A stretch of 64,000 bases of DNA from a virus (lineage: Duplodnaviria; Caudoviricetes): positions 1 through 64,000 of the IMG/VR virus record IMGVR_UViG_3300046786_000293; one strand, written 5' to 3'. Below are positions 478 through 52,627 of this stretch, in pieces. The translations under genes and the position numbers were made by a program. Numbering within the stretch: position 1 is the first letter of the stretch; every line of letters begins with the position of its first letter. Under the pieces are notes generated by a model. It was given only the letters and a program-made list of their open reading frames with translations, ran no database searches and was not told the origin of the DNA.

Positions 478-650
478 TCTTTTGTCCTCAACATCTCAAA
501 CAATTCTTTCCCAAGTTTAGTTTTGAATTCTTCCTCAGTCATATGCACCAGGGTATCCATTGCCAGTTCCATTGGTAATCTTAATACGATTTCCATTTCT
601 GGGGCAAAGGTATCAGGATTCATTTTTATGTGTCTGCTGATTAATCTCAT
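474..650 (-). CDS. Hypothetical protein, 58 aa (not in ORF track)
   Basis: MRLISRHIKMNPDTFAPEMEIVLRLPMELAMDTLVHMTEEEFKTKLGKELFEMLRTKE; ATGA overlaps at both ends; GGAG RBS supplied by the upstream gene end. Confidence 0.7.
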   Translation of the reverse strand: MRLISRHIKMNPDTFAPEMEIVLRLPMELAMDTLVHMTEEEFKTKLGKELFEMLRTKE

Positions 651-880
651 TTTTCAACTCCGAAATGTTGTTTAATTTTTTTATGAAGGAATCCTTGATT
701 GTATCCGTACCCATCATGTCTAATTGTTTCAGATTGTAACACATCACAACATTCTTTCACAATCAACTCAGCGAACTTTTTGCAGAATGCAGAATTGGGT
801 TCAATTCGATATCGTTGATCCTCTGGATATTCTGCTGTATCAAACGCTTGGTCGGCAAGTTCTTTAATTCGTTCGTTCAT
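647..880 (-). CDS. MNERI-family hypervariable small protein, copy A
   Basis: MNERIKELA...KFAELIVKEC...KQHFGVEK. Confidence 0.85.
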   Translation of the reverse strand: MNERIKELADQAFDTAEYPEDQRYRIEPNSAFCKKFAELIVKECCDVLQSETIRHDGYGYNQGFLHKKIKQHFGVEK

Positions 881-1101
881 AGTTCAACTCCGAAATGTTT
901 CAACAAATCTTCTGGTTCAGGATGCCAAGCATTGTTAGCGTTATCATAACCTGAATTCTCATCCAGGAACTTAGCACATTCCCGAACAATCAACTCGGCG
1001 AACTTTTCCTGGTCCAGTGCTTTAATTTCGGTGTATCCGCCATCAGTGTATCCGACAACTTTTTGAGCCTGTTCAGCAAGTAGTTTAATTCGTTCGTTCA
1101 T
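877..1101 (-). CDS. MNERI-family hypervariable small protein, copy B
   Basis: MNERIKLLAEQA...KFAELIVREC...KHFGVEL. Confidence 0.85.
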   Translation of the reverse strand: MNERIKLLAEQAQKVVGYTDGGYTEIKALDQEKFAELIVRECAKFLDENSGYDNANNAWHPEPEDLLKHFGVEL

Positions 1102-1319
1102 TTTGTCTCCAGAAAATAATCCCAGTCCTTACCACCTAGCTTGGCCCAGTTTTCCCATTTGATCATTTCATCTTTGCACTGTTGCGGCATGCCTATACTA
1201 CCTACTACTGCACCGCACCCACAACGATAACTAATACCGCTAGAAGTATCAAAATATGCAGTCCCGCCACAGGGTAGGACCATCCCGTCCATTAGCTCGT
1301 TCATTTTGATCTCACACAA
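1098..1319 (-). CDS. Hypothetical protein (Cys-containing; start uncertain)
   Basis: ORF in the operon chain; overlaps its neighbours. Confidence 0.6.
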   Translation of the reverse strand: MCEIKMNELMDGMVLPCGGTAYFDTSSGISYRCGCGAVVGSIGMPQQCKDEMIKWENWAKLGGKDWDYFLETK

Positions 1320-1522
1320 CGATACCGATCAGGGTTGAGATTGAGTTGCCGGGCAGCTTCTTCGCACATTTCCAGCGCAGTCTTTCCACCAAGACGCCCG
1401 TGATCCAAGTGGAACTCGCCAATAGGTCGCCAGTCACGGTCACGATGCAGAATGTAATTGCCTGTACCTTGTCCTTGTATGGCAACTACAGTCCAAATCA
1501 CCAGAATGTAAGTGTATCCCAT
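1301..1522 (-). CDS. Hypothetical protein with hydrophobic N-terminus
   Basis: ORF in the operon chain. Confidence 0.65.
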   Translation of the reverse strand: MGYTYILVIWTVVAIQGQGTGNYILHRDRDWRPIGEFHLDHGRLGGKTALEMCEEAARQLNLNPDRYRCVRSK

Positions 1523-1755
1523 TATGATTTCAATGCCGCCATAGTTTGTTCACGTGCTCTACGTTCAAGGTCTGCTTCTTCTGCGGCGCGAATCTTGTAT
1601 GCCATCATGCCCATAAACTCCTGTACAGCTTCTTTACCTTCTTCGGTAAAGTGACTGTAGGACTCTCCTACAGTACTGTGGTAGTAATAACGGCGATCAC
1701 GGATAATCTCTTCGAGACTACCATAGATTAAATGTTTAAGTGCGCCTTTTTCCAT
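1522..1755 (-). CDS. Hypothetical protein (likely start MEKGALK at 1755)
   Basis: The ORF-track N-terminal extension overlaps ligase by about 200 nt; the ATG at 1755 abuts the ligase stop. Confidence 0.7.
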   Translation of the reverse strand: MEKGALKHLIYGSLEEIIRDRRYYYHSTVGESYSHFTEEGKEAVQEFMGMMAYKIRAAEEADLERRAREQTMAALKS

Positions 1756-1756
1756 A

Positions 1757-3082
1757 TTAAATTTTCTCACCAACTTCAAAGCCACGGAATCGGAGGAACC
1801 TCGGAAAACGTAGCGAATAACTACCATCTTGATTTTGTGTAATCGCATCTGCACGGACTTCCGCGATGGTGTTAAGAACTTTACTGCGACTAGCCCAATA
1901 ACCAATGCGCTGATCGTCACTAAATCCAGATCCAACGTTGACACGAATTGACTTTCCATCATCTACACCTTCACAAACGAATGCACCAAGACGCCCCACG
2001 TTCTTGCCTGTACCTTCTTCTACATCAACAACAGTAAGGCTAACTTCAATAAAAGGTTTCAACTTGAGCCAAGCTACACTACGCTTACACTCGTAGCCTG
2101 CATTGGGATCTTTAATCATAATGCCTTCGTAGCCTGCGGCAACAGCACGAGCATTGATAGCCTTGTACTGTTCTTGCCCTTGTGGGGTGTCCAAGTCAAC
2201 TAGTTCGTGACTGAGAATTTCTACGTTAGGCATGACATTTTCGTAGACTGCAAACCACTCAGCCAGCATTTCACTGCGACGACGTTGCGGCGTCACACTT
2301 GCACCTTTTTCAAATTCCTCCAGCGACAAAATGTCAAACAAGTTAAGCACAGCATCGTTGGCTTTGACGTTACTCTTGCGATGTACTTGCTTCATCAAGT
2401 CTTGAAAACTGGACGACATAATCTCGCCGTCAAAGACCATGGGCTCACTGAAGTGTCCACCAAGTTTGGTAACTGCTTGGAATTGTTCTTTGATGTGCGG
2501 AAAGTTTACAAGTTCTTTACCGTTACGGCTATACTGATCAACACGCCCATCTGGATAAACAACAGTGATAATCCGGACCCCATCGAGTTTAACTTCGATA
2601 AGTTTGCGTCCAGATACTTTCGATTCATGATTAGCACTATCGTGAGCAAGCTGACAAGAAAAAATTGGTACAACATATTCAGGCCATTCCTTTTCTACAA
2701 CCTTGTTAATAGTTTTTTCGCTGGCACCACAACGAAGATCCTTGATAAGGATGCGACGATACCAGCCATTCCATTCTGCCTTTGTGGCAGACTTCATCAT
2801 ATCGTTAACCATATCCCTAGCAGTATTGCCGGTGACTGCACGACTGACGAATCCAGTGATGACAAGAGTAAATGTTTCCCAAGGCAAGCCAGGACCGTCT
2901 GCGTCCTTCTTTTCGGGAATTTGCTTCAAGCCAAAAGTAATCATAGGGTCCAGTGCTAGTCTTGCACCTTCGAAGAATTCATTATTGCCCGCTCGCGCCT
3001 GTTCAAAGATAATCTGCTCTTTGTTAATACGGGAGGGATGATTTTCGAGATCGGCGATAACTCGATAGCAAGGATCTAACAT
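1757..3082 (-). CDS. lig: ATP-dependent DNA ligase
   Basis: KxDG motif I (EVKLDGVR), FDGE, EGIMIK, WLKLKP, OB-fold SLRFPRF; start MLDPCY downstream of a sigma70 promoter. Confidence 0.95.
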   Translation of the reverse strand: MLDPCYRVIADLENHPSRINKEQIIFEQARAGNNEFFEGARLALDPMITFGLKQIPEKKDADGPGLPWETFTLVITGFVSRAVTGNTARDMVNDMMKSATKAEWNGWYRRILIKDLRCGASEKTINKVVEKEWPEYVVPIFSCQLAHDSANHESKVSGRKLIEVKLDGVRIITVVYPDGRVDQYSRNGKELVNFPHIKEQFQAVTKLGGHFSEPMVFDGEIMSSSFQDLMKQVHRKSNVKANDAVLNLFDILSLEEFEKGASVTPQRRRSEMLAEWFAVYENVMPNVEILSHELVDLDTPQGQEQYKAINARAVAAGYEGIMIKDPNAGYECKRSVAWLKLKPFIEVSLTVVDVEEGTGKNVGRLGAFVCEGVDDGKSIRVNVGSGFSDDQRIGYWASRSKVLNTIAEVRADAITQNQDGSYSLRFPRFLRFRGFEVGEKI

Positions 3083-3109
3083 TTGAACTCCAACTGATAA
3101 TATAATGCT

Positions 3110-3138
3110 ATTATACAGTAATATTGAAAAACAGTCAA
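3110..3138 (-). promoter_or_regulatory. Sigma70-type promoter for ligase
   Basis: TTGACT-17 nt-TATAAT on the minus strand. Confidence 0.75.
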
Positions 3139-3143
3139 CCATT

Positions 3144-3168
3144 AAAAAACCCCTATCGGGGTTTTTTT
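3144..3168. terminator. Bidirectional rho-independent terminator
   Basis: AAAAAACCCC-TATC-GGGGTTTTTTT. Confidence 0.85.
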
Positions 3169-3649
3169 AAGTAACTACAACCTCGCCTCTAACGGTAACT
3201 ATTTGTGCATAAAATATCCATTGCCAACGAGCATACTCTTTAGGATTTAAAACAGACTCTACTGAACCGTCGGAAACTTTAATTAAGTTAATTCCGTCCA
3301 ATGTATATAGTCTGTTGTCGAATAAAATTGGGTATTTGGCTTGCATATTATTATATGCAGTCATGTCTGTCCAAATTCTGGTAGTTTGCTGGCCATGGCC
3401 GAGTTCGTCGTGATATTCAACATTAATAACATCCAGTAATCCGGGATTTTGTTGTTCTTGCCAATTGGCATCTATTTCGTCACATAAGTCAGAAATAATT
3501 GCGTCGACATCCGTTTGAGTCAAATTAGCAGTAGGATACAATGGATTTAGTAAATCGAGTGTAGTATTTGATGTAATGTACTCATTACGGCTAATGGCAT
3601 TACTATTTTGACAAACGGTTGTATTAACTTGGGTAACTGGCATATTCAT
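3167..3649 (-). CDS. Hypothetical protein
   Basis: 160-aa ORF with AAGGA RBS and upstream TAAATA. Confidence 0.7.
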   Translation of the reverse strand: MNMPVTQVNTTVCQNSNAISRNEYITSNTTLDLLNPLYPTANLTQTDVDAIISDLCDEIDANWQEQQNPGLLDVINVEYHDELGHGQQTTRIWTDMTAYNNMQAKYPILFDNRLYTLDGINLIKVSDGSVESVLNPKEYARWQWIFYAQIVTVRGEVVVT

Positions 3650-3672
3650 TCCTTTAATTAAACTTATTTATG

Positions 3673-4017
3673 TCAAATCAATGAAAGATGTTTGCATTTG
3701 CCCCTAAATTTAAACCCGCTACATGTACAAGTCAGCCCGTGTTCAGTCTGTTCGACAATATATTTGTCGCCTTTACTCCCCTTAACTTCCCACTGGGGAT
3801 TGTGGTTTTTTGATTCTTCGATTTCAAAATTAAAGGTATTTTTAATTTCTTTGAACATTCGACCGCGGCTGTCGATTTGTATTGGATTTTTAAACTTAAA
3901 CACGCTCTTGGAGCCAGCCCGGATAAACGCATACATTTTAGTCTTGCTGTCGTTAAGCAAATAAATCCCGTTTGGGGTATCTGTATGCCATTTAGTAGTT
4001 TCTTGATAAAACTTCAT
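3673..4017 (-). CDS. SWIM zinc-finger domain protein
   Basis: C-terminal CTCSGFKFRGKCKH (CxC...CxH); start MKFYQET after GGAG. Confidence 0.8.
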   Translation of the reverse strand: MKFYQETTKWHTDTPNGIYLLNDSKTKMYAFIRAGSKSVFKFKNPIQIDSRGRMFKEIKNTFNFEIEESKNHNPQWEVKGSKGDKYIVEQTEHGLTCTCSGFKFRGKCKHLSLI

Positions 4018-4124
4018 TTTTACTCCTGATGCAGTATTATAACACATTTGGGTAATTTTGAGCAAATAGTCAAAAAAATGTGGCTAAAAAGCCACATTCC
4101 CAAATGTAATACTTGAGTATTAAT

Positions 4125-4748
4125 TTATTTTGAGGTGCCTACAACTTCTATTTCAACTCGACGGTTTTTAGCACGACCTGCGGCTGTTTTATTGTCTGCT
4201 ATAGGTTGGCGTTCGCCTTTTGAATCTGTATAAACACGAGTCTTTTCAATTCCTCGGGTAACTAAGTAAGCCTTAACCGCCTCTGCTCTTCGACGGCCGA
4301 GGTTCATATTATATGAATCTGACCCTATCGAGTCGGTATGCCCAACAGCAATGATAACTTCAAGAATAAACTCTTTGTTGATTTTTCCGACTAGTCCGTC
4401 TAATACCAGACGACCTTCGGGTTTAAGTACACTCTTATCAAAGTCAAACAAAGTATCAGTGGCGTAAGTTAATTTAACAATCTTAGATGCTTGTGGTTGG
4501 GGAGCCGGTAACGTAGCTACCGGAGTTGGTGCAACTACCGGAGCAGTAAATGTAGCTTGGATGCGGGGAACAGGTTTAATTGCACAATCACAATCAGGAT
4601 GTGTAGTGGCAGGGGTCCAAGAACTATTACGCCAGCATTGTTCTGAAGAGTTTTTCCAAGGTGTATCTGTAGAATTGACCCAATTATTAGTTTGAGCACT
4701 CACTAGGCCTGCACTCACGGCAACAATTGTAGTAATAAGTTTTTTCAT
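4125..4748 (-). CDS. ompA: OmpA family outer-membrane/peptidoglycan-binding protein, Betaproteobacteria type
   Basis: Signal peptide; N-terminal W-K-N...CWR...WTP...CD; Pro/Ala linker; OmpA_C motifs LFDFDKS, VGHTDSIGSDSYNMNLGRRRAEAV, NRRVEI. Confidence 0.92.
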   Translation of the reverse strand: MKKLITTIVAVSAGLVSAQTNNWVNSTDTPWKNSSEQCWRNSSWTPATTHPDCDCAIKPVPRIQATFTAPVVAPTPVATLPAPQPQASKIVKLTYATDTLFDFDKSVLKPEGRLVLDGLVGKINKEFILEVIIAVGHTDSIGSDSYNMNLGRRRAEAVKAYLVTRGIEKTRVYTDSKGERQPIADNKTAAGRAKNRRVEIEVVGTSK

Positions 4749-4780
4749 AGTAAACTATTTATTTGTGTGTTTATTCTATC

Positions 4781-5365
4781 TTACTTTTTTATTCGTTGCG
4801 TTTGATAAACAATTCTGGGATCATTTGCACTACTAGCCCATAGTCCTTTGTCTATGCCCCACTGAATTAGTATAAAAAATATCAGTATAAAAGTAGCAAT
4901 AATTCCTACACCTATAGCAATGTCAGACTGAATTTCTTTTAATTCTTGTTTTTTCTTTTCGCGCATAGTTTTTTCGAATAGTTCTTTACTTTGTGCTAGT
5001 GCTTGTTCTTTTTCCAGTCTAAGGCGTTCTTTCACCATAGCATGATATATCTCACCATTGCCGGACCAGATTAGCAGAGTCTTAATTTCTGCTTCGTCCT
5101 CAATCATCTTTTTTTCTTTTATTGCAACATCTAATGCTCGAGCAGTTAGTTCATAGTAATCCTCTTGTCGGTTTTCCTTCAAGGATTCTCTTTTTTTCTC
5201 TTCAACTTGTCGGCTTTCTTGTTTAATTTGATGCTGGGCGTGAAAGAATTTTGTAAGATCTCCACTCACCTCGTAGATATCTTTGCCCAATTTAATGGCT
5301 TCTTTTACCGTTTTCACACTTGCTTGTGCCATGGCAAAAGCCGCACCAACTGTCAGCGGGTCCAT
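4781..5365 (-). CDS. Coiled-coil protein with C-terminal TM segment
   Basis: Start MDPLTVGAAF; charged helical middle; hydrophobic IAIGVGIIATFILIFFILIQW. Confidence 0.7.
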   Translation of the reverse strand: MDPLTVGAAFAMAQASVKTVKEAIKLGKDIYEVSGDLTKFFHAQHQIKQESRQVEEKKRESLKENRQEDYYELTARALDVAIKEKKMIEDEAEIKTLLIWSGNGEIYHAMVKERLRLEKEQALAQSKELFEKTMREKKKQELKEIQSDIAIGVGIIATFILIFFILIQWGIDKGLWASSANDPRIVYQTQRIKK

Positions 5366-5402
5366 ATTATTATTGTTGTCCTTCCCTGACAGAATATTTA
5401 TC

Positions 5403-5427
5403 AAAAAAAATGGACTCCTAAGAGTCC
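5403..5427 (-). terminator. Terminator at the end of the tmRNA coding piece
   Basis: GGACTC-TTAG-GAGTCC followed by A and T8 on the minus strand. Confidence 0.85.
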
Positions 5428-5651
5428 AATTTGGTTGTTTTGGTTACAAGGTAAGTCCTACCCCGGGTTTGGCACTATTAGGCCAATACAGCCTCGCGAC
5501 GAGCAGAAGCTAGCTTTACGCCTTTTCCGCTGAACTTGAAGCTACCATTTGTAGATGCTTTTGCATTTACTAGATTTATGCGATTAACGTTCGTCATCTA
5601 ACGTGCTGTCCACTCTGTTACTCTTTGCCCTGTCGAAACCATGGCAGGCCC
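5405..5651 (-). ncRNA. ssrA: Permuted tmRNA, coding piece (5' acceptor strand, D-loop, tag ORF)
   Basis: Starts GGGCCTGCCATGGTTTCGACAGGG (typical tmRNA 5' end); TAAAT|GCA resume context; tag ORF 5564-5478 ends in TAA. Confidence 0.88.
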
Positions 5652-5660
5652 ATCATAAAA

Positions 5661-5912
5661 TTACTTAATGTATTTGTTGATAACTTTAATTCCTGCGTAA
5701 GTTCCTAGCACAGTAAACATCATTTTGAATACTGTTGTCCAGTCAGTGGCATTACTTAAAGTTAGTTTAATAGGGCCTGCTTCGATGGAGTCTGTTGTTT
5801 TAGGATGATCTAAAAATTGAACATAATATAACAACAAATCCCAAGCATACTGGCTCAACAGATATATCGCAAACGATATAATAAAACCAGTAAACAAACC
5901 TCTACGATACAT
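5661..5912 (-). CDS. 83-aa two-TM protein inside the tmRNA intervening segment
   Basis: AGGAGA RBS directly after the tmRNA CCA; two hydrophobic segments; stop 9 nt before tmRNA G1. Confidence 0.8.
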   Translation of the reverse strand: MYRRGLFTGFIISFAIYLLSQYAWDLLLYYVQFLDHPKTTDSIEAGPIKLTLSNATDWTTVFKMMFTVLGTYAGIKVINKYIK

Positions 5913-5924
5913 TAAATCTCCTTA

Positions 5925-5990
5925 TGGTGGACCTGGCGGGAGTCGAACCCGCGTCCAGAACACTTTTCTCTTTGCTTCATACAGCAATAA
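5925..5990 (-). ncRNA. ssrA: Permuted tmRNA, acceptor piece (T-arm and CCA)
   Basis: ...GTTCTGGACGCGGGTTCGACTCCCGCCAGGTCCACCA; CAGGTCC pairs with GGGCCTG, giving a G3-U70 wobble. Confidence 0.9.
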
Positions 5991-5994
5991 CTAA

Positions 5995-6000
5995 TATTTA
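5995..6000 (-). promoter_or_regulatory. Putative T4-like late promoter TAAATA driving the tmRNA precursor
   Basis: TAAATA lies between a terminator and the acceptor piece; short motif, so position is the main support. Confidence 0.5.
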
Positions 6001-6005
6001 TCAGC

Positions 6006-6028
6006 AAAAAAGGCTCCGAAGAGCCTTT
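6006..6028 (-). terminator. Rho-independent terminator
   Basis: AGGCTC-TTCG-GAGCCT plus T-run on the minus strand. Confidence 0.85.
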
Positions 6029-6046
6029 GTAGCACACTTGCTGAAA

Positions 6047-6397
6047 TTACTCTGCAACAGCGTCAACGATGGCCTGAGCCTCGGACTTCTTAGAGCGAGC
6101 CTTAATAGCCTCGAGGCTGGGCTTTTCTGCCTTAGACGGCTTACTGACTTTGACAGTCTTAACTTCATTATACTTGGCATCTGCGGCATCGATTGCGGCA
6201 GTGTAACGAGCATCTGCATAGAGCTCAGTAGACTTGAGATAAGTAACCACTGCGGGCTTATCCATAGCCTCGGGCAGTTCGCGAAGCTCAATATCAGTAT
6301 GACCATTCTTGGCCAACACTTTAACACGAGTCATGTCATTGGCGAAACGAACTTTAGCTTCACCTTTGAGAACGGAAAGACCAGCAACTTTAAACAT
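6047..6397 (-). CDS. Conserved phage hypothetical protein with basic Ala/Lys-rich C-terminus
   Basis: 116-aa ORF with GGAG RBS, promoter upstream and terminator downstream. Confidence 0.8.
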   Translation of the reverse strand: MFKVAGLSVLKGEAKVRFANDMTRVKVLAKNGHTDIELRELPEAMDKPAVVTYLKSTELYADARYTAAIDAADAKYNEVKTVKVSKPSKAEKPSLEAIKARSKKSEAQAIVDAVAE

Positions 6398-6462
6398 AAA
6401 ATACTCCTAGAAAAAACAAGTTAGTTGAAAAACTGTTAACATCCATTTGCTAACATATTCAA

Positions 6463-6491
6463 ATTATAGTTGATTTTGGATTTGATGTCAA
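6463..6491 (-). promoter_or_regulatory. Sigma70 promoter
   Basis: TTGACA-17-TATAAT. Confidence 0.85.
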
Positions 6492-6544
6492 CCATTATTT
6501 GAATTCAGGTTTACCAAAATTAATTGGCAGATTCTTTTGAAAAT

Positions 6545-6817
6545 TTAGCCTTCGTAAATGGGACCAAACAGACCCAATTGGTCACAGACATCACCGGCCG
6601 CATCATCGAGACGGTCGGCAATGATTTCTTCTACCACAGTCATATCTTCGCCAACCATTGCTTCCTTGATGATTGTGAAAGCATCCTTCAATAGCAACTC
6701 GGCGAACTTGTAGATATCTACGCCATCTTCCAGGCCGTTTTCGGCATCACGGGCCAGACCGTATTTGTCTACAGTCATCCCGGCCTGTTCGGCCAGTTTT
6801 TCAATTCGTTTGTTCAC
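6545..6817 (-). CDS. MNERI-family protein, copy C (divergent C-terminus, GTG start)
   Basis: MNKRIEKLAEQAG...KFAELLLKD; lacks the HFGVE end. Confidence 0.8.
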   Translation of the reverse strand: MNKRIEKLAEQAGMTVDKYGLARDAENGLEDGVDIYKFAELLLKDAFTIIKEAMVGEDMTVVEEIIADRLDDAAGDVCDQLGLFGPIYEG

Positions 6818-6868
6818 GATTCAACTCCGAAATGTTGTTTGATTATTGGCACCGCATCGTCAACCAAA
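6814..6868 (-). pseudogene. Remnant 3' end of an MNERI-family gene fused to a -35 promoter fragment
   Basis: TTGGTTGACG followed by ...ATCAAACAACATTTCGGAGTTGAATCGTGA (IKQHFGVES*), with no start or middle part. Confidence 0.65.
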
Positions 6869-7042
6869 TTAGGCGTTCTTTTTAGGACGACCACGACCAC
6901 GTTTCGGGGCATCTGCAACCACGGCATTCTGATTGAGTTCAGCCAAACGGCCTGAATAAGCACCTTGCCCGGCTTTGTGGATCAATCCAGTTTGGGTAAA
7001 AGTAACAGTGCCGCCTTTAGAAGTAACAAAACCGTTTTTCAT
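6869..7042 (-). CDS. Small protein with C-terminal AT-hook
   Basis: MKNGFVTSKGG...KRGRGRPKKNA (GRP AT-hook core). Confidence 0.75.
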   Translation of the reverse strand: MKNGFVTSKGGTVTFTQTGLIHKAGQGAYSGRLAELNQNAVVADAPKRGRGRPKKNA

Positions 7043-7072
7043 TTCAATGTCCTTCTGTGTTGCAATATCAAT

Positions 7073-7105
7073 ATTATAGCAAAATTGGGAATTTTCGTCA
7101 ACCAA
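7073..7105 (-). promoter_or_regulatory. Repeated cassette early promoter
   Basis: TTGGTTGACG-AAAATTCCCAATTTTGC-TATAAT; 17-nt spacer; extended -10 TG. Confidence 0.9.
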
Positions 7106-7106
7106 T

Positions 7107-7364: not shown

Positions 7365-7394
7365 TTCAAACTCCTTTTGTGTTGCAATATCAAT

Positions 7395-7642: not shown

Positions 7643-7672
7643 TTTGTGCTCCTTCTTCCTTACTATGTCTAT

Positions 7673-8038: not shown

Positions 8039-8053
8039 AAAAGGTGTTGTTTT

Positions 8054-27584: not shown

Positions 27585-27887
27585 TTACTTTAGAGAAATT
27601 GCTTTGTAGCATTCGATATATACTTTATTTGCAAATTCTTTACTTGCACGAATCTGGTATTCAATAGTTCTATATTGAGGTTCTTCGTATGCCGATATGA
27701 TAATCGAAAGAACCACTCTATTACCATCAGCAATTGCAATAACCTGTGAGGCTGGAATTCCAGCCTGCCGAAGATCCATAATCTTATATGACAGTTCCTG
27801 CAAGTCATTGCATACTATTTTTTGTGCATTGGCACTTAACGATCCAGCCAGCACCAGCATCGCCAAAATACTTTTTATCTTATTCAT
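27585..27887 (-). CDS. Exported hypothetical protein
   Basis: Signal peptide; ATGA overlap with MNERI copy E. Confidence 0.75.
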   Translation of the reverse strand: MNKIKSILAMLVLAGSLSANAQKIVCNDLQELSYKIMDLRQAGIPASQVIAIADGNRVVLSIIISAYEEPQYRTIEYQIRASKEFANKVYIECYKAISLK

Positions 27888-28132
27888 TCTTCAACTCCGA
27901 AATGTTCTTCAATCGCTTGTTTATATTGTATACCCAAGGCACCCGGTGTTTGGCAATAGGTCTTATAAGCAACTACACCACATTCCCGAACAATCAACTC
28001 AGCGAACTTTTCGTCGTATACTTCATCAACAGGCCAAACTGGTTTTTCGGGCGGCGGAACCACAAGACCATCGTGAACAGCCATTGTATACTCCCAGGCT
28101 TGTTTTTTAAGTTCCTCAATTCGTTCGTTCAT
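27884..28132 (-). CDS. MNERI-family protein, copy E
   Basis: MNERIEELKKQA...KFAELIVREC...EHFGVEE. Confidence 0.85.
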   Translation of the reverse strand: MNERIEELKKQAWEYTMAVHDGLVVPPPEKPVWPVDEVYDEKFAELIVRECGVVAYKTYCQTPGALGIQYKQAIEEHFGVEE

Positions 28133-28380
28133 AGTTCAACTCCGAAATGTTGTTTAATCTTATCTACAATTTGTTGGCTTTGCTGTATTCTTGCTCTATT
28201 CCAATTGGCATCCTGTTCATTGAACACTTCCATATCCTCAACATACTTTTTCTGCCCATCTGCAATATTCATACATTCCCGAACAATCAACTCGGCGAAC
28301 TTGGCCTTGTCAAAATACCGGAAACCATCGTGCTCTTCGGTAGTTGCCTGTTCAGCAAGTTTTTTAATTCGTTCGTTCAT
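28129..28380 (-). CDS. MNERI-family protein, copy F
   Basis: MNERIKKLAEQA...KFAELIVREC...KQHFGVEL. Confidence 0.85.
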   Translation of the reverse strand: MNERIKKLAEQATTEEHDGFRYFDKAKFAELIVRECMNIADGQKKYVEDMEVFNEQDANWNRARIQQSQQIVDKIKQHFGVEL

Positions 28381-28696: not shown

Positions 28697-28772
28697 CTCC
28701 TTTGTTGCAATACAAGTATTATAGCAAAAATGGGAATTTCGGTCAACCAAAAAAGTAATACTTAAGCATTAC
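28697..28772 (-). repeat. Cassette leader, promoter and palindrome; near-identical to 29048-29103
   Basis: TTGACC-17-TATAAT; shared ACTCCTTTGTTGCAATACAAGTATTATAGCAAAA; GTAATAC-TTAA-GCATTAC. Confidence 0.9.
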
Positions 28773-46083: not shown

Positions 46084-47012
46084 TAATTAGTAACTTTCTC
46101 AAGACCTAAGCGACGCCTCATATCTTCGAATCTATTGTATTGGAAATCTAAGAACTTTTGACTATCGGCAGGTGGTTTAATAATTTCATATTCTAATAGT
46201 TTAAGACTAGAAATCAGATTATTATCTTTAAACGCTGTTTGAGATAAGGAAAACACCCGAGTATCAACTTGATGTCCTTTGACTGCGGATATACCAAACC
46301 AGTAATAAAAATCGAAATCTTCAATGGTTTGTTTTATTATTGGCAACTGCGAAAACTCCTGATGTTTACCTTGACTTGCAATGGCAATAATTTTAATTTT
46401 ATTATCTCTATGAGAATTAGCTAACGTAGACAATGGATCTATTGCACAATCTATACTGCCGCCTATTAGGTTCGCCGTAACATCGCTTGCACCTTTAAAA
46501 GGAATTATTTCAGTCTGACTCAAGCCTAAATGTTTAACTATAAACCTGCCAGCAAACGCTGAGCCAGAATTGCTTACTCCACAATTTAATTTTCTCTTTT
46601 TAGATTGTTCTAAAAATTCATTCCATGATGTAATACCGCTCTGATTACTAACGGCTACTACTAATGGAGTTCTAGCCAACGGCACTACCATATCAAATTG
46701 AGAATAATCGTAGCCATTATTTGAATATAGGACTTTATTAAACAATACAGGACCCGTGGCTGCAATCATGAATGTATTAGAGTCTAACGGCTTATTTAGA
46801 ATATAGGCAACACCTATTTTACCGTCTGCTCCAGGTTTATTTACGATAACCGAGGGAACATTAGAGTTAATTAAGTATTTTTGAAAATTGCGAGCAAACG
46901 TATCTACTGCACCACCTGGAGGATACGGCACAACTAATTCAACTGGTTGAGTTGCATGAGCTATGCTAAAAAATATAAAAAACGCAAAAATAAATTTTGA
47001 TAAATGTTTCAC
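46083..47012 (-). CDS. Bug/TctC tripartite tricarboxylate transporter substrate-binding protein
   Basis: Signal peptide; VVPYPPGGAVD; VNKPGADG; IPFKG...L.GG.ID. Confidence 0.88.
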   Translation of the reverse strand: MKHLSKFIFAFFIFFSIAHATQPVELVVPYPPGGAVDTFARNFQKYLINSNVPSVIVNKPGADGKIGVAYILNKPLDSNTFMIAATGPVLFNKVLYSNNGYDYSQFDMVVPLARTPLVVAVSNQSGITSWNEFLEQSKKRKLNCGVSNSGSAFAGRFIVKHLGLSQTEIIPFKGASDVTANLIGGSIDCAIDPLSTLANSHRDNKIKIIAIASQGKHQEFSQLPIIKQTIEDFDFYYWFGISAVKGHQVDTRVFSLSQTAFKDNNLISSLKLLEYEIIKPPADSQKFLDFQYNRFEDMRRRLGLEKVTN

Positions 47013-47013
47013 T

Positions 47014-47325
47014 TTATTCTTCAGGTTCTAATTTAACTACAAGAGGATATCCGTTGTTACGTGCAAGTTGTGTAACTTCAAATCCCTTTTGTTCAGCCAT
47101 CTCGTGTGGTAAAGTAGCAACTACACCCGATCCATCTGTATGGATCTTAATGGTCATTTCTTCTGCGGCCATGCGATCATAATTGAATATAATGACCAAA
47201 GTTTCGGCAACAAACTCTTGTGTGGTAACTTCATCGTTGATGAAAATTACATTATATCTTAAAGGTTTTGGAATGTCGGTTCTGGGTTTAATTTTTGTAA
47301 CAACGTTTGGATCTGCTGTAGTCAT
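47014..47325 (-). CDS. clpS: ATP-dependent Clp protease adaptor
   Basis: YNVIFINDEVTTQEFV; IHTDGSGVV; A..K; YPL. Confidence 0.92.
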   Translation of the reverse strand: MTTADPNVVTKIKPRTDIPKPLRYNVIFINDEVTTQEFVAETLVIIFNYDRMAAEEMTIKIHTDGSGVVATLPHEMAEQKGFEVTQLARNNGYPLVVKLEPEE

Positions 47326-47371
47326 AATAATTGAAAGTTAGAAGGGGGAAGTTATCCCCCTGTTTATTATA

Positions 47372-47815
47372 TTACTTCTTGTAAGTAATAGCAATCTTCT
47401 TTGGCTTTTCTTCCTCGGGAATTACTAATTCCAAAGCGACTGCGAGAATACCGTTTTGAACGGTTGCTCCACGTACTTCTACGTTGTCTGCTAACGGGAA
47501 AGTGCGAGTAAAGTTTCGAGCACTGATGCCCTTGTGTAGATATTCTACTTTTGGCGCATCTTCTGCTTTGACTTTTTCACCTTTAACAGTTAGCAAGTTG
47601 TCCTTTAATTCTACATCGATTTCGTCTTCAGCAAAGCCAGCCACAGCTACTTCAATAATGAAATGTGTATCGTCCAATTGGGCGATATTGTGTGGGGGAT
47701 AGTTGTCTTTGCTATTAGCAAAAGTACGATTTAGTTCCTCAAACATACGGTCAAAGCCAATGGCATGACGATGTAGTGCAGGTAAATCAAAGGTACGAAG
47801 TGTGAATTGTGTCAT
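47372..47815 (-). CDS. ibpA: Small heat-shock protein (IbpA/Hsp20)
   Basis: IGFDRMF, YPPHNI, AVAGF, YLHKGISARNF, NGIL. Confidence 0.95.
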   Translation of the reverse strand: MTQFTLRTFDLPALHRHAIGFDRMFEELNRTFANSKDNYPPHNIAQLDDTHFIIEVAVAGFAEDEIDVELKDNLLTVKGEKVKAEDAPKVEYLHKGISARNFTRTFPLADNVEVRGATVQNGILAVALELVIPEEEKPKKIAITYKK

Positions 47816-47898
47816 TTTATTTCTCCTTATAAAGCAAGTTATGACATTTAAATGTAGACCCCACCCGGGCATCTACACAAATATTTATTATATAGAAA

Positions 47899-48108
47899 TC
47901 AATCTTGTTTGTCAATTGAGTTGGGCGTAGACATTGGTTCAACGAAATACCATCGTCTTTGGCTTTCAAAAGTTAACGCAAAAAAATTGTAAGTTTCTGC
48001 AGATTCTAAGATAACCCTAAGAGTATATTTTACAATTTTTATTTTGTACGGGAGTTGGTACTTATTACTCCAGTCAAACAGTTGCTTTTTTATTTCGTAA
48101 GCCGCATG
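47899..48108 (-). CDS. Hypothetical protein (start uncertain)
   Basis: ORF downstream of rpsU. Confidence 0.5.
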   Translation of the reverse strand, partial: HAAYEIKKQLFDWSNKYQLPYKIKIVKYTLRVILESAETYNFFALTFESQRRWYFVEPMSTPNSIDKQD

Positions 48109-48158
48109 TTGTGCTCCTAATCCTCCGGCACCTGTGGGCAATACGAACTCGATGTACA

Positions 48159-48371
48159 TTAGTACAACTTCTTGGGCAACGCCTGATCTGCTAGTCGCTT
48201 ACGCCAACGATTTCGTGCCGCAGAGGCTGCTTTTTTACGTGTTGTGGTGGGTTTTTCGTAAAATTCTTTGTCACGAAGATTCTGAAGTAAGCCGCTTTCG
48301 GCAACTTTTTTCTTGAATTTACGTAGAGCACGATCTACGTTGTCATCTTTAACAAATATTTTACAAGCCAT
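48159..48371 (-). CDS. rpsU: Ribosomal protein bS21
   Basis: V...NVDRALRKFKKKV...G.L...R.KEFYEKPT..RK. Confidence 0.92.
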   Translation of the reverse strand: MACKIFVKDDNVDRALRKFKKKVAESGLLQNLRDKEFYEKPTTTRKKAASAARNRWRKRLADQALPKKLY

Positions 48372-48374
48372 ACT

Positions 48375-49085
48375 TTATTTACGCCTAAACGTGTCAATTC
48401 GGCCGATCCAGTCCTTAAGATCACGTTGGCGATCTGGATGACTGTAATCGTCGGGATTTGTGGGATCTTGTCCGTCTGCGGCGTAACTACGCTCTTGGAA
48501 TGTAGAATCGTTGTTATTGCCTGTTACATCTGCACGGTCATGGTATACTTCTACCGCAATATTTTTCATTGCGGCCGCAGGTACTGTTACATTGTAGATC
48601 CACCAATCACTATGTGCTACAGGACTAATACACCCAAATAATTCAATCCAGCCGCTTGGAATAATTGGGAATAAAGCAAAGGGGTGATTCATACTTACGC
48701 AAGGCATACGCAGTAGACCGAAGTATCCGTCTTGTTCTACGATCTTATCGTCCCAGCCTTCGGTGAGCATGAGTGCATCATCGTTCCAGAACATTAGCCA
48801 ATCTCCCGTAGCTTGTTCGCCCAAGAAATTAACATAACGATTTAGTTTCATGTAACCAAATCGTTCGGTTTCAAAAATCTTACTAGTGGCATCACATTGT
48901 CCGATGTAGTCTGCCCAAGTGTTGGCAAAGAAATCTCTGCTTTCGTCGTCGTCGTTATCGTAGGCAATTAGAACTTCAATACGGCTAGTATCCGATGCTG
49001 TAGCCAAAAGACTATTAAGACTTTTGACTAGCATTTCGGTACGTTTGCGAGTGGGTAAAAGAATACTGATTTTAGGTTTTGTCAT
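48375..49085 (-). CDS. Glycosyltransferase family 2
   Basis: ISILLPTRKR; EVLIAYDNDD; WNDD. Confidence 0.85.
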   Translation of the reverse strand: MTKPKISILLPTRKRTEMLVKSLNSLLATASDTSRIEVLIAYDNDDDESRDFFANTWADYIGQCDATSKIFETERFGYMKLNRYVNFLGEQATGDWLMFWNDDALMLTEGWDDKIVEQDGYFGLLRMPCVSMNHPFALFPIIPSGWIELFGCISPVAHSDWWIYNVTVPAAAMKNIAVEVYHDRADVTGNNNDSTFQERSYAADGQDPTNPDDYSHPDRQRDLKDWIGRIDTFRRK

Positions 49086-50679
49086 TTGTAATTTGCTTGA
49101 GTTTTTCTGCTACTAGTTCTTGTTCACTAGCACTTAATTGATCCAGGTCATATTCACCTGACTGCAATTTTTCTATTAAGAATTGTATATATTGTTCGTC
49201 GTAACTGTATGTGTCGGTCTTGGATTTATCTACTTGAATCCATTTTGTTCCGTTATACTTGTACAAACGATTTGGTAGATAATCTACACGTAGGTACATT
49301 TCTCCTTTGTTTGCATTATCTGGGAACGATATACCAAAACTGCTTTTTGCAGGAGTTGCACCTACATTGTCTGCTACCAATTGTGATTTTCTGATATTCG
49401 CAGTTTCGGGAGGAGGTGGAGGGGGAGGTGCTTTATAGGCACGGCGTGCTTCAAGCGGTCCTTCGGTTACCCGTTCTTCTACGTAGTCTCCGGGACGCTC
49501 AGGACTAGATACTTCTGCCACGGGCTCTACTACAGGCTTTTTACGTCTTGGTGCTCTAGGTTTTTTAACTTCAACTGGTTCAGTCTCAGCTTGAGCTACC
49601 AACGGTCCTACGCTGACCCAACCTTCGGGCTTTTTCCAAAAGTCTTTGCTGTTTTTCAAATAAGAAAGTTCTCTGACTGTGTTATTTTCAACAACAGGCT
49701 CCGTATGTTTGTTCACCTCGTCAGGTGTGTGTTCCTCTCTCTTATCGAACATCCATCCAGGCGGATGCGGATCAACGCTTTCGATTTCAGCAAGTTCTTC
49801 AGCAGTAGGTTTTTCTCCCACATCTGCTACCCACGGATCCGGTGCCTTATCAAATGTGTCTAAAAGTTCGTCTGTACGTTCTTGCCAATTTGTTTCGGTG
49901 TCATTGACTGCAATCTCTTTGTCATCCCGGGCCCAACGTAAACTTTGCTGTGCGGCAAGAATTAATACAAGAGCCAAGGGATCAAATACTGCAACGATAA
50001 GAATGATAACCCAACGTACTGCACTTTCTAACAAGTTTGCATCTGGATTATCACCATAGATCATCGCGGCGATATACTTAATAGGGCCGACTTCTGCTTC
50101 GACCTTTCGTACTTCGGCGGCAATAGGCGCACGGGCATCGTTAAGTTCTTGGATAGACTTCTGCGACTGAAGTATTTCATTTTGAAGTCTAGCACGTTCT
50201 TTCTGCTGGGAGCGACGCAGAGCCACAGCCTTGTCGGCACCTTTTTCATCTGTTGAGCGGCCCAATACTTGGTCCACTCCTTCATCCATTTGTTTAAGTG
50301 CCTTACGGTTTGCTTCAATATTTTCTTTTTCGGTTTTGATCTTTTCATCATATATTGCAATCTTACTGGTAACGTTTCCACTTACTAGACTTTGGTCACT
50401 GTGTGCTTTACTTAGGAATCCAAAGATACCCATGGATGTTAGCACCATTAAAAATGCTACTGCGGGCACAAGATACATCTTGTAAGTCCACCTGGCACGA
50501 CTCCAATTTATTTTTAGCCATACTGCGGCTGTGACTTTGCCAACTTCTAATGCCGCACCCATAATGATAATAGGAATAACTGCGGCGGAGAAAATGGCAG
50601 TAAGGCCGACGATACTATAGTATGCGGCCACTGCACTGATTATTAATGCAACAAATAAAGTAAAAAATCCAAATATCAT
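49072..50679 (-). CDS. Multi-TM coiled-coil protein with acidic/Pro-rich tail
   Basis: N-terminal TM helices, coiled coil, VFDPLA TM segment; upstream TAAATA. Confidence 0.8.
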   Translation of the reverse strand: MIFGFFTLFVALIISAVAAYYSIVGLTAIFSAAVIPIIIMGAALEVGKVTAAVWLKINWSRARWTYKMYLVPAVAFLMVLTSMGIFGFLSKAHSDQSLVSGNVTSKIAIYDEKIKTEKENIEANRKALKQMDEGVDQVLGRSTDEKGADKAVALRRSQQKERARLQNEILQSQKSIQELNDARAPIAAEVRKVEAEVGPIKYIAAMIYGDNPDANLLESAVRWVIILIVAVFDPLALVLILAAQQSLRWARDDKEIAVNDTETNWQERTDELLDTFDKAPDPWVADVGEKPTAEELAEIESVDPHPPGWMFDKREEHTPDEVNKHTEPVVENNTVRELSYLKNSKDFWKKPEGWVSVGPLVAQAETEPVEVKKPRAPRRKKPVVEPVAEVSSPERPGDYVEERVTEGPLEARRAYKAPPPPPPPETANIRKSQLVADNVGATPAKSSFGISFPDNANKGEMYLRVDYLPNRLYKYNGTKWIQVDKSKTDTYSYDEQYIQFLIEKLQSGEYDLDQLSASEQELVAEKLKQITNDKT

Positions 50680-50707
50680 AAGTTAGTATTTATCGGCTAT
50701 TCTCCTG

Positions 50708-51061
50708 CTAGCGTATCTTAATTTTATCTACCTTGACTCTATCACTGTACAATTGTCGACCACGTTCACGAATTAGGTCAGCCATATATTGCGGATCTTC
50801 ATCAAATTGTCGACGAAGGTCTTGGGCTGTAATTGTGTCGTCAGTGTCAACAGCGTAAATTTCGTAATGACGCTGAGTGTTAAACCTAGCCCTAAGTACA
50901 AGCATATTCAAAATACTATTAACCGTGTTAGGGCGACCTTTGTTCGAGTTTTCCGATGTGTCTTTGAGTGCGGCCCACATATTTTCCTTGTCAATATCCG
51001 AAATATTAACAACGGCTTCGAGACCTTCACAATCCCAACTAAGAACATAAGTGTGCGTCAT
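50708..51061 (-). CDS. Conserved phage hypothetical protein
   Basis: SWDCEGLE...LRARFN.QRHYEIY. Confidence 0.75.
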   Translation of the reverse strand: MTHTYVLSWDCEGLEAVVNISDIDKENMWAALKDTSENSNKGRPNTVNSILNMLVLRARFNTQRHYEIYAVDTDDTITAQDLRRQFDEDPQYMADLIRERGRQLYSDRVKVDKIKIR

Positions 51062-51303
51062 TGTAGTAGTGCTCTGCCAACACCCATAAGATAAATTACT
51101 AGCAGTCCTGCATTCACTACTATAAGCGCATTGTCACGAATTCGCAAGGCCCAGATCAACCAAATAAGTGTGCCCACGTTCATAACGTAGATGTTAAGTG
51201 GATCTACAGCAAGGCTGGTCAGCACTGCACCAATTAGGATTAGTATAGTAGCAGACCATTTCAAAATGCTGTCTACTTGTCGATACGTTAAAGTTTTAAC
51301 CAT
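51058..51303 (-). CDS. Small three-TM membrane protein
   Basis: Hydrophobic ORF; likely start MVKTL. Confidence 0.7.
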   Translation of the reverse strand: MVKTLTYRQVDSILKWSATILILIGAVLTSLAVDPLNIYVMNVGTLIWLIWALRIRDNALIVVNAGLLVIYLMGVGRALLQ

Positions 51304-51304
51304 A

Positions 51305-51568
51305 TTATTTCCTTGATAAAATATCCCAATCCAATCCATGCCATGGTCGGAAACCTATTTCGCCCAGCCAAGTTTTTTGCTTGACAATCTCTGCCCACTC
51401 GCCTTCACTGTCTTGATAGACTACACGGCAAGAGCCAAATATATTCCGACACTCTTCAAAAACCAAGTCGGCATCGTTTGTGACACTGCGTCCGCCAAGG
51501 TCAAGGTCTCGGATAAACACAATGTCGCCTTCTTTTCTAACGAATTCCCAGCGGCTTCTTGACATCAT
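51305..51568 (-). CDS. Hypothetical protein
   Basis: SVTNDA...VVYQDSEGEW. Confidence 0.75.
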   Translation of the reverse strand: MMSRSRWEFVRKEGDIVFIRDLDLGGRSVTNDADLVFEECRNIFGSCRVVYQDSEGEWAEIVKQKTWLGEIGFRPWHGLDWDILSRK

Positions 51569-51801
51569 TCAACTCCGAAATGTTCTTTAATCCTGTCTTT
51601 AATAACTTGGGAAATATTGCCATTGATACCATCTTCACGACTATACCAAACCTGCTCCATACATTCTTCTACAATCAACTCGGCGAACTTTTTCATTTCT
51701 TCTTCACAGGTTTGATTATGGTATTCCAAATACCAGATATCTTTGTAATCTTCATAAAAAAATCCTGCTTGTATAGCAAGTTCTTTAATTCGTTCGTTCA
51801 T
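51565..51801 (-). CDS. MNERI-family protein, copy G
   Basis: MNERIKELAIQA...KFAELIVEEC...KEHFGVE. Confidence 0.85.
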   Translation of the reverse strand: MNERIKELAIQAGFFYEDYKDIWYLEYHNQTCEEEMKKFAELIVEECMEQVWYSREDGINGNISQVIKDRIKEHFGVE

Positions 51802-51802
51802 T

Positions 51803-51886
51803 TTAAAATCCATCTTTGACGATGACGGCCAGGCCCATGATAATGATAGGCAAGAGTACGATAATCAAATTGGTGATTGCAGTCAT
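51803..51886 (-). CDS. 27-aa hydrophobic peptide (not in ORF track)
   Basis: MTAITNLIIVLLPIIIMGLAVIVKDGF; GGAGA RBS. Confidence 0.6.
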   Translation of the reverse strand: MTAITNLIIVLLPIIIMGLAVIVKDGF

Positions 51887-52119
51887 TTAGTTTCTCCGTA
51901 AGCCAGTGCAAACATCATAAACTTTTTTTCGTCTTTGATAATACCATGATTCCAATAATTTTGACGGTTCTTGGTAAGCCCAATGCCAAATTCATTAAGT
52001 GCAATTTTTTGCATCAATCCTTGGTATCCACGAGCATTCGGGTAGCGTACCCAAGCCAACTGATATGAGACATTAAGAATGTTATTTCTAATAGAGGTGC
52101 TAACCCTGTTCATCGCCAT
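51883..52119 (-). CDS. Hypothetical protein
   Basis: ORF in the chain with overlaps. Confidence 0.65.
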   Translation of the reverse strand: MAMNRVSTSIRNNILNVSYQLAWVRYPNARGYQGLMQKIALNEFGIGLTKNRQNYWNHGIIKDEKKFMMFALAYGETK

Positions 52120-52397
52120 TCGCTCCCACGGTTAATTTCTTCCTCTGTGAATTGTCCACCCATACGATCCGGATTCTCTTTCCAGGAATCGTATGAGGCC
52201 TTTTCCATGCACTTCTCCACATCGGCCAGGATAGCACGGAGTTCATCGATGTTGATCTTCAGGAGTTCTTGCACGGAATGGAGAGCAATGTCTTCTCTAC
52301 AGTCGGCGATGCACCGGGCGGCACGAACCTCGGCAAGATACTTTTCCTTGCCGGCAATGGTATTTTTTAAGTTATCGCGGACGGTTTGGATGTTCAT
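52110..52397 (-). CDS. Hypothetical protein
   Basis: ATGA overlap with MNERI copy H; ends SWKENPDRMGGQF. Confidence 0.75.
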   Translation of the reverse strand: MNIQTVRDNLKNTIAGKEKYLAEVRAARCIADCREDIALHSVQELLKINIDELRAILADVEKCMEKASYDSWKENPDRMGGQFTEEEINRGSEWR

Positions 52398-52627
52398 TCT
52401 TCAACTCCGAAATGTTTCTTAATCGTAGCCGCATATTGATGAGGTCCTGGATTTACATAGGCCATTGCTAAACATCTATCAGCACATTCTTTCACAATCA
52501 ACTCAGCGAACTTTTGTTGCTGTTCCAACCAACCTTCACAATACACACGGCCAAAGTATTCGGGATCGGTGCTGTTGAAAAAGTCTATACCAGCCTGTTC
52601 AGCCAGTTTTTTAATTCGTTCGTTCAT
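52394..52627 (-). CDS. MNERI-family protein, copy H
   Basis: MNERIKKLAEQAG...KFAELIVKEC...KKHFGVEE. Confidence 0.85.
   Translation of the reverse strand: MNERIKKLAEQAGIDFFNSTDPEYFGRVYCEGWLEQQQKFAELIVKECADRCLAMAYVNPGPHQYAATIKKHFGVEE

Follow-up and report, generated by a model that had tools for sequence, protein, structure and literature searches.

A family of small phage genes with two apparently shuffled cassette positions between three conserved DNA boxes

We analysed a window of 64,000 nucleotides (positions 1 to 64,000 of the IMG/VR virus record IMGVR_UViG_3300046786_000293) that contains seven copies and one C-terminal remnant of a family of small genes, the MNERI family. Each gene has conserved boxes (box 1, box 2 and box 3) that bound two variable segments, V1 and V2. 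The best explanation of the data, to which we assign a probability of about 0.75, is a cassette family shuffled at its boxes by ordinary homologous recombination. In this explanation, the MNERI genes would be paralogues within a very large family of small (~70–95 amino acids) acidic phage proteins encoded in early-type operons. The boxes would encode the start of helix 1 (box 1), the first part of helix 2 (box 2) and the end of helix 3 (box 3). V1 would form a β-hairpin, and V2 the end of helix 2, a loop and the start of helix 3 in a three-helix bundle. V1 and V2 would act as cassette positions that are independent of each other, and a large pool of discrete and conserved module types would be available to each. 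The modules would be swapped between paralogues and between co-infecting phages through crossovers in the 17–34-nt identical tracts at the boxes, probably by the phage's own UvsX/RecA-type machinery.

Reassortment of the V1 and V2 modules

All seven copies and the remnant were confirmed as open reading frames (ORFs) of the minus strand at the positions originally predicted (Table 1). Box 1 (ATGAACGAACGAATT) was present in six exact copies and, with two mismatches, in copy C. Box 2 (AAGTTCGCYGAGTTG) and box 3 (AACATTTCGGAGTTGAA) were each present in seven exact copies. The numbers expected by chance were 0.29 for box 1, 0.18 for box 2 and 0.02 for box 3. The three shared boxes of the original prediction therefore stand, with seven occurrences each, while the positions it gave for box 3 were one base too high; those in Table 1 are corrected.

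All seven copies matched the family profile over its full length (E = 3e-32 to 3e-23; copy C, 2.6e-23), and a profile search of the whole 338,510-bp genome found no copies beyond these seven. Between the boxes, the copies are unrelated in sequence and in length, as had been noticed before: the highest pairwise identity was 0.27 in V1 (14–29 amino acids) and 0.32 in V2 (23–44 amino acids). The longest exact tracts common to non-adjacent window copies were 17–34 nt.

In a word-indexed search in which the best 8,000 candidates were scored, at least 7,992 family candidates passed. An exhaustive search of 1.84 billion representatives gave 7,976 clusters (50% identity) at E ≤ 0.001, and 1,402 clusters at E ≤ 1e-10. 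All the detected members came from uncultured phages, mostly from freshwater. Searches of Pfam and PHROG gave nothing above noise for any of the seven copies, and a tblastn search with copies D and F had no hit among 50,697 deposited phage records, even with the threshold relaxed to E ≤ 1. The named clusters of the ESM Atlas offered no usable match, and no paper came up in a full-text literature search with the motifs KFAELIV, HFGVE and FAELIVRE. Five other large contigs carried 12, 1, 2, 3 and 9 family copies per genome. Family copies occupy non-homologous places in related genomes. For example, in locus L016 a copy lies between genes whose homologues adjoin each other at ~274 kb in the genome studied here.

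The linkage analysis covered 256 distinct proteins, selected for their similarity to the window copies. Identity in V1 showed no correlation with identity in V2 (Pearson r = −0.005). Among the pairs at least 70% identical in V1, 87% were less than 30% identical in V2, which equals the background of unrelated pairs. The identities were bimodal, with 957 pairs at 0.7 or above and only 25 between 0.5 and 0.7; the modules are therefore discrete types. The proteins contained 161 V1 types and 163 V2 types in 235 combinations, and three pairs of V1 types had two V2 types in common, forming four-gamete squares.

Mosaic V1/V2 combinations, which the original prediction proposed to look for in homologues, were found, and some of them carry window modules in new pairings. 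V1 of copy F was combined with V2 of copy B in L008 (= P0005), with V2 of copy E in P0003 and with V2 of copy A in P0006. V1 of copy E was combined with V2 of copy F in P0015 and P0037 and with V2 of copy B in P0058. The V1 type of copy A occurred with three other V2 types (L008, L009, P0049 and P0069) and its V2 type with four other V1 types (L010, P0006, P0097 and P0110). The V1 type of copy G was likewise seen with other V2 types (P0041, P0081, P0089 and P0117).

At the DNA level, 23 pairs had V1 in common (81–100% identity) with an unrelated V2, 10 pairs had V2 in common with an unrelated V1, and no pair had both. The similarity broke down 12–36 nt past the start of box 2 or 18–33 nt before its end, at the edges of box 2 and its xEC extension. 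Upstream of the ATG, 21 of the 23 V1-sharing pairs were random (~0.25); downstream of the stop codon, all ten V2-sharing pairs were near-random (0.21–0.40 over 150 nt). Because similarity is lost at box 2, before the ATG and after the stop, a module is a cassette bounded by boxes on both sides. From these comparisons, each module appears to move on its own, tied neither to its partner module nor to the genes on either side.

Several sequences look like what unequal or illegitimate exchange would be expected to produce. They include an internal duplication of box 2 (P0142), tandem fusions (P0009, P0010, P0155, P0177 and P0199) and a foreign N-terminus joined at box 2 (P0138 and L012). Boxes were also found on unrelated ORFs, with a box 1 start in L057 and L068 and a box 3 end in L027 and L037. 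The window remnant is of the same kind as these orphan box 3 ends: it follows the stop codon of an unrelated gene of 57–78 amino acids and gives copy C its GGAG and GTGA overlap. Another apparent fusion, P0166, was rejected as a spurious repeat protein.

Within a module type, the ratio of nonsynonymous to synonymous divergence (dN/dS) was 0.14 for V1 and 0.06 for V2, at a synonymous divergence (dS) of 0.45 and 0.51, respectively; in individual pairs, dS exceeded 1. The modules are peptides that are old and conserved under purifying selection; their variety reflects a many-allele polymorphism and not hypermutation. The term hypervariable, which had been applied to both segments, does not fit such discrete and old cassette types. 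The proposed recombinational shuffling at the boxes with a combinatorial pool of V1 and V2 was borne out by the absence of V1/V2 correlation, by the four-gamete squares and by the breakpoints at boxes 1, 2 and 3. We also examined whether V1 and V2 have congruent histories and whether the family stems from recent duplication, and found neither.

Conservation of the box nucleotides and weighing of explanations

Constraint on the boxes at the level of DNA had been suggested from the window copies. We analysed codons in 144 members with DNA, from the window and from 80 IMG/VR loci (L008–L087) fetched through peptide patterns, and the same synonymous codons were nearly fixed among them. Many of these are minority codons in this genome, with shares of 0.36 for AAC, 0.14 for CGA, 0.29 for AAG, 0.27 for TTC, 0.19 for GAG, 0.19 for TTG and 0.28 for GGA. 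Their use in the boxes and in the V regions of the same genes was, respectively, 0.93 and 0.29 for AAC, 0.93 and 0.18 for CGA, 0.93 and 0.35 for AAG, 0.90 and 0.21 for TTC, 0.88 and 0.23 for GCC, 0.90 and 0.18 for GAG, 0.91 and 0.30 for TTG, and 110 of 110 and 0.27 for GGA. Glu is fixed on different codons depending on the box: boxes 1 and 3 have GAA, whereas box 2 has GAG. The Val codon directly 3′ of box 2 varied in its third base (G in 59 members, T in 51, C in 12 and A in 9). Codons varied at other control residues as well: the Arg after that Val used four codons, and Gln11 and Ala12 were also variable. When random pairs had the same amino acid, they had the same codon in 86% of cases at box positions and in 50% at conserved control positions.

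Codon bias could not explain the identity of the boxes because the box codons are minority codons of the genome, and GC content was ruled out together with it, as box conservation was independent of locus GC (0.32 to 0.54). Recent duplication was ruled out by the synonymous divergence of the control residues and of modules within a type. In random member pairs, dS was 0.30 in the boxes, below the values within modules of the same type (0.45–0.51), which is hard to obtain by neutral sharing alone. This result suggests that the box nucleotides are under purifying selection or biased conversion. In the V regions, the GC content at third codon positions was ~0.30–0.33 whatever the GC content of the locus, even at the loci with 44–54% GC among the 80 from IMG/VR. 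This constancy fits a pool circulating among phages, not residents adapted to one genome. In higher-GC phages, the family genes look compositionally foreign.

Part of the conservation has a counterpart in translation. Among the 108 box 3 members with enough downstream sequence, 87 were followed by an ORF of at least 40 amino acids whose start overlapped their stop; 65 of these ORFs were unrelated genes and 22 were family members. The commonest junction was GGAGTTGAAGAATGA. All seven box 3 copies in the window are followed by a stop-overlapping start (ATGA or GTGA), and ATGA overlaps chain copy B into copy A and copy E into copy D. The GGA, the GTT and the A-rich spacer of box 3 are explained by this Shine–Dalgarno/stop–start junction. 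The predicted coupler anatomy of box 3 (a GGAG ribosome-binding site and an ATGA or GTGA overlap) and the head-to-tail chaining of copies were thus recovered, also at the ends of unrelated ORFs. Box 3, through its GGAG and stop–start overlap, would act as a translational coupler of the next gene, and box 1 would lie in an unpaired initiation region.

The boxes might accordingly be read as RNA- or translation-level signals, with box 1 as initiation region, box 3 as Shine–Dalgarno coupler and box 2 as an RNA or protein-binding site; the mosaicism would then be a passive by-product of identical tracts. We regard this as a possible explanation, although an unlikely one. It agrees with the invariance of GGA (110 of 110), with the GGAG found ~8 nt ahead of the overlapping start in 81% of box 3 genes, with the span of boxes 1 and 3 over the start and stop signals, and with predicted mRNA folds, in which box 1 is the least paired region (mean pairing probability of 0.34, against 0.57 in the V regions). 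Box 2, however, lies in the middle of the gene with no start or Shine–Dalgarno role. Partition-function folds of the 144 genes revealed no consistent pairing among the boxes: the expected number of base pairs was 0.9 between boxes 1 and 2 and 0.7 between boxes 2 and 3 (2.2 for the third box pair). Since box 2 is expected to form less than one base pair with either partner, an mRNA structure linking the boxes was rejected as an explanation of why box 2 is conserved. This conservation is explained by nothing except a joint role or some binding site. Moreover, the poor codon CGA is fixed in box 1 though AGA is more A-rich, and the mosaics still require recombination at the boxes. If the family is shuffled at its boxes, the codon fixation would reflect protein constraint and, in boxes 1 and 3, translation signals; selection for consensus joints or homogenisation by conversion would be added, above all in box 2.

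Some points weigh against shuffling at the boxes as we describe it. All the evidence for exchange is comparative, and the identity of the boxes prevents crossovers from being located within them. The partner counts of the copy F modules (a V1 type with 35 V2 partners and a V2 type with 44 V1 partners) are inflated by the enrichment of the protein set for relatives of the window copies, which leaves the V1–V2 non-correlation unaffected. The synonymous divergence of the boxes in random pairs is low yet above zero. The probable use of UvsX is deduced from the presence of its gene.

The window comes from an IMG/VR virus contig of 338,510 bp with 39% GC, estimated to be 97% complete. The genome encodes a Gp23-type major capsid protein (E = 5.6e-99), a gp21-type prohead protease and a RecA/UvsX-like protein, and is therefore of the T4 type. 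DNA nearly identical to this phage was present in freshwater, aquatic and drinking-water metagenomes of 13 studies. In this 97%-complete genome there was no match to RVT_1 (reverse transcriptase), Phage_integrase (tyrosine integrase) or Resolvase (serine recombinase). A dedicated diversification machinery in the form of a recombinase or reverse transcriptase, for which the original prediction suggested a search, was thus not found in the genome; the presence of the RecA/UvsX-like gene alone points to general recombination on short homology.

A stand-alone gene for a GIY-YIG protein of 96 amino acids (Pfam E = 1.7e-6) lies ~500 nt upstream of copy G (Table 1), and a homologue with 76% identity lies ~1.2 kb upstream of family copies in L053. 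The gene near copy G could encode a local break-maker. Exchange might then start preferentially at the boxes as actively used sites, through the GIY-YIG enzyme or T4-type break-driven replication, with high-rate reassortment within single infections; we consider this improbable. If it were true, the family would be a phage counterpart of antigenic variation, a self-renewing library of two-surface binders against host defence, and box 2 would be kept invariant through selection for exchangeability.

Even less probable, in our judgement, is a dedicated or semi-dedicated system in which a site-specific recombinase or a GIY-YIG-like homing-type nuclease breaks DNA at the boxes at a high rate, as in integrons, shufflons or antigenic variation. 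The GIY-YIG genes near copy G and in L053 would suit such a system, as would the otherwise unexplained conservation of box 2. GIY-YIG genes are common in T4-type phages, however, and the genome lacks matches to the three enzyme families named above. Every copy is complete and in direct orientation, attC-like hairpins were not observed, and the copy number ranges from 1 to 12 per genome.

The window proteins (74–90 amino acids) are acidic (isoelectric point 4.1–5.9) and hydrophilic, with no signal peptide or membrane segments. AlphaFold2 models were obtained for copy F (m45fa513dd1c8) and copy E (m71e192a34e9b), with a predicted local distance difference test score (pLDDT) of 83 and 84, respectively. 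Despite modules of different type and length, the two models have the same plan: a helix at residues 3–12, a hairpin, a long helix from box 2, a loop and a C-terminal helix ending at box 3. They agree with the small helical scaffold with two variable parts that had been envisaged. Foldseek gave no match in PDB at E ≤ 0.001, and the best Z score of VIA-align against 48,161 chains was 5.4, to a generic helical structure. The only good structural matches were three viral 'hypothetical protein' clusters of the ESM Atlas (1662, 185 and 252 members; template modelling score of 0.71–0.84). Domain fusions that might hint at function were limited to tandem fusions, short C-terminal extensions and one Cys-rich tail. 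This tail, a zinc-ribbon-like C-terminal extension after HFGVEE, was observed in L017/L018 (1500–1856) and P0141 and was the sole recurrent added domain seen. The proteins may be intracellular binders with two independent surfaces, most likely for host or defence components in the infected cell, and host–phage conflict might maintain their polymorphism.

The models also bear on whether box 1 encodes a cleavable capsid-targeting leader, as in T4 internal proteins, so that the family would consist of head-packaged and injected proteins. We give this little credence. The genome does encode a gp21-type prohead protease, L8-A9-E10 resembles the (L/I)-x-E cleavage motif of T4, and T4 internal-protein loci are likewise polymorphic behind a constant leader. 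Against this, residue 10 is Glu in only 67 of the 144 members (47%), the models place the N-terminal helix within the bundle, with a pLDDT of ~91, and the genes are in units headed by predicted sigma-70-type early promoters.

Assembly chimeras, formed by assemblers that cross over at the repeated boxes, are a hardly credible source of the mosaics. All the sequences do come from metagenome assemblies, and Logan contigs break at box edges. Yet the exact shared tracts of 17–34 nt are at or below k-mer sizes and far below read length, and a 399-nt contig from a different study spans the whole of copy F with zero differences. In single samples, 6–9 different contigs run from box 2 of copy F into other partners. 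The P0014 combination recurs on 19 contigs, and mosaic partners differ synonymously inside their common module (dS up to more than 1), a pattern not to be expected if reads of one sample had been joined wrongly.

A diversity-generating retroelement or other hypermutation, which the alternation of constant and variable blocks might bring to mind, can practically be dismissed, as the genome has no reverse transcriptase and the modules differ in length, are unalignable between types and show purifying selection at high dS within types.

Genomic setting of the family genes

The features of the window are listed in Table 1. From the arrangement of promoters and genes, the family genes appear to lie in early-type polycistronic units. 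The window contains 11 promoter-like sites that match TTGAC-N17-19-TAYAAT strictly, and every one of them is on the minus strand. A longer consensus (GGTTGACCGAAATTCCCAATTTTGCTATAATA), which is PeSL-like, is common to several of these sites. Relaxed variants exist outside the strict count, for example one with the −35 sequence TTGCC at ~53090. The genes next to the family copies are small ORFans, for which Pfam and PHROG gave no informative match. The surroundings of the MNERI genes look like the hyperplastic early regions of T4-type phages.

Other genes in the window were noted in passing. The A/B pair is flanked by genes for an ATP-dependent DNA ligase, at most 35% identical to the ligases of cultured phages, and for a WYL_2/Sm-like SH3 barrel protein (Pfam E = 1.8e-11). 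ARAGORN called a permuted (two-piece) transfer-messenger RNA (tmRNA) with the tag peptide AKASTNGSFKFSGKGVKLASARREAVLA. A protein of 207 amino acids carries a signal-like segment at its N-terminus and a peptidoglycan-binding domain of the OmpA family (Pfam E = 2.6e-20).

Table 1. Positions of MNERI family genes, their boxes and other features in the window (aa, amino acids)
Feature	Position	Strand	Box 1	Box 2	Box 3	Remarks
Copy A	647–880	−	866–880	764–778	653–669	77 aa
Copy B	877–1101	−	1087–1101	991–1005	883–899	74 aa
Copy C	6545–6817	−	6803–6817 (2 mismatches)	6695–6709	none	90 aa, divergent, GTG start
Remnant	6814–6868	−			6820–6836	last ~17 codons of a family gene
Copy D	27884–28132	−	28118–28132	27995–28009	27890–27906	82 aa
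Copy E	28129–28380	−	28366–28380	28288–28302	28135–28151	83 aa
Copy F	51565–51801	−	51787–51801	51676–51690	51568–51584	78 aa
Copy G	52394–52627	−	52613–52627	52499–52513	52400–52416	77 aa
Unrelated 58-aa gene	474–650	−				ATG overlaps copy A stop; GGAG from box 3; no Pfam/PHROG match
Unrelated 100-aa gene	27585–27887	−				ATG overlaps copy D stop; phrog_2315 (unknown function)
Unrelated 87-aa gene	51305–51568	−				ATG overlaps copy F stop
Unrelated 95-aa gene	52110–52397	−				ATG overlaps copy G stop
Predicted sigma-70-type early promoter	7073–7101	−				TTGAC-18 nt-TATAAT; heads 57-aa gene, remnant, copy C
Predicted sigma-70-type early promoter	28718–28746	−				heads 102-aa gene, copy E, copy D, 100-aa gene
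Promoter-like sites	3138, 6491, 7101, 7701, 11189, 24884, 26203, 28746, 29097, 30991, 47915	−				strict motif
WYL_2/Sm-like gene	199–477	−
DNA ligase gene	1757–3142	−
OmpA-family domain gene	4125–4748	−
tmRNA	5387–6021	−
GIY-YIG gene	53110–53400	−				96 aa

Comparison with known systems

Exchange among many copies guided by short conserved DNA segments is familiar from pilE/pilS of Neisseria, where variable minicassettes lie between such segments and the exchange is RecA-dependent. There, one expressed locus is accompanied by silent partial copies and a dedicated initiation element. The MNERI copies, in contrast, are all complete and separately translated, and exchange was mostly seen between genomes. 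A diversity-generating retroelement was not recognised, given the lack of RVT_1 and of alignable modules between types and the conservation of modules within types. Nor was an integron- or shufflon-like site-specific system, as neither Phage_integrase nor Resolvase was matched.

In T4-type phages, the gp38 adhesin of the T2/T6 type has hypervariable segments between conserved glycine-rich motifs where crossovers can occur (Trojet et al. 2011, PMC3157838); these segments were treated earlier by Tetart et al. (1998), as cited in PMC3157838. The likeness to gp38 is that, in a protein of a T4-type phage, short strict motifs form the structural core and each variable segment is taken from a restricted palette. 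The resemblance is architectural only, with no relation in sequence or fold. Whereas gp38 is a virion adhesin with four cassettes, a MNERI protein is an early-operon protein of ~80 amino acids with two cassettes and many paralogues per genome. Sets of hypervariable segments are often associated in gp38, while V1 and V2 are fully unlinked, and the MNERI boxes, unlike the gp38 motifs, also carry start and Shine–Dalgarno signals. The MNERI proteins were not assigned to gp38-type adhesins: they have no Pfam or PHROG match, their boxes are not glycine-rich, and their genes lie in early-type operons.

PeSLs are short conserved motifs in the hyperplastic early regions of T4-type phages that serve as recombination joints for shuffling small ORFan genes (Arbiol et al. 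2010, PMC2839356; Comeau et al. 2014, PMC4122927). The window, too, has repeated sigma-70-type early promoters. PeSLs, however, are intergenic units of promoter and terminator that move whole genes; the MNERI joints are coding, one of them in the middle of the gene, and reassort modules smaller than a gene. The family was not classed as PeSL cassettes because its recombining boxes are in coding sequence or at its ends and the promoter repeats are not the joints.

Polymorphic toxins such as CdiA-CT have C-terminal domains swapped at a conserved junction motif (Zhang et al. 2012, PMC3482391). They resemble the MNERI family in joining a constant part to many alternative variable parts at a short junction, and in having orphan cassettes. 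Those toxins are large and secreted, with immunity genes and one swap domain, whereas the MNERI proteins have two swap positions in 80 amino acids and no toxin, immunity or secretion signal. Their small size, acidic and hydrophilic nature and unrelated ORFan neighbours set them apart from this class.

Recombination at short conserved motifs is thus already established in T4-type phages. The MNERI family works alike but belongs to none of the systems compared. With ~8,000 clusters and no match found in Pfam, PHROG, PDB or the literature, it is among the larger unnamed phage protein families. It extends the modular shuffling of whole genes by PeSLs, and that of gp38, to the sub-gene level in small early-operon proteins: two modules of 20–30 residues, only 20–30 nt apart, are in complete linkage equilibrium across the samples of many studies. 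Should the proteins bind host or defence factors, they would amount to a natural library in which every small scaffold presents two independent recognition surfaces. The family also offers a clean natural case of the question whether selection for recombinability can hold synonymous sites. Compared with the known systems, the novelty lies in the scale, in a resolution below the gene at which the two modules are completely unlinked, in joints with a threefold use (in the protein core, as translation signals and in recombination) and in the fixation of synonymous sites.

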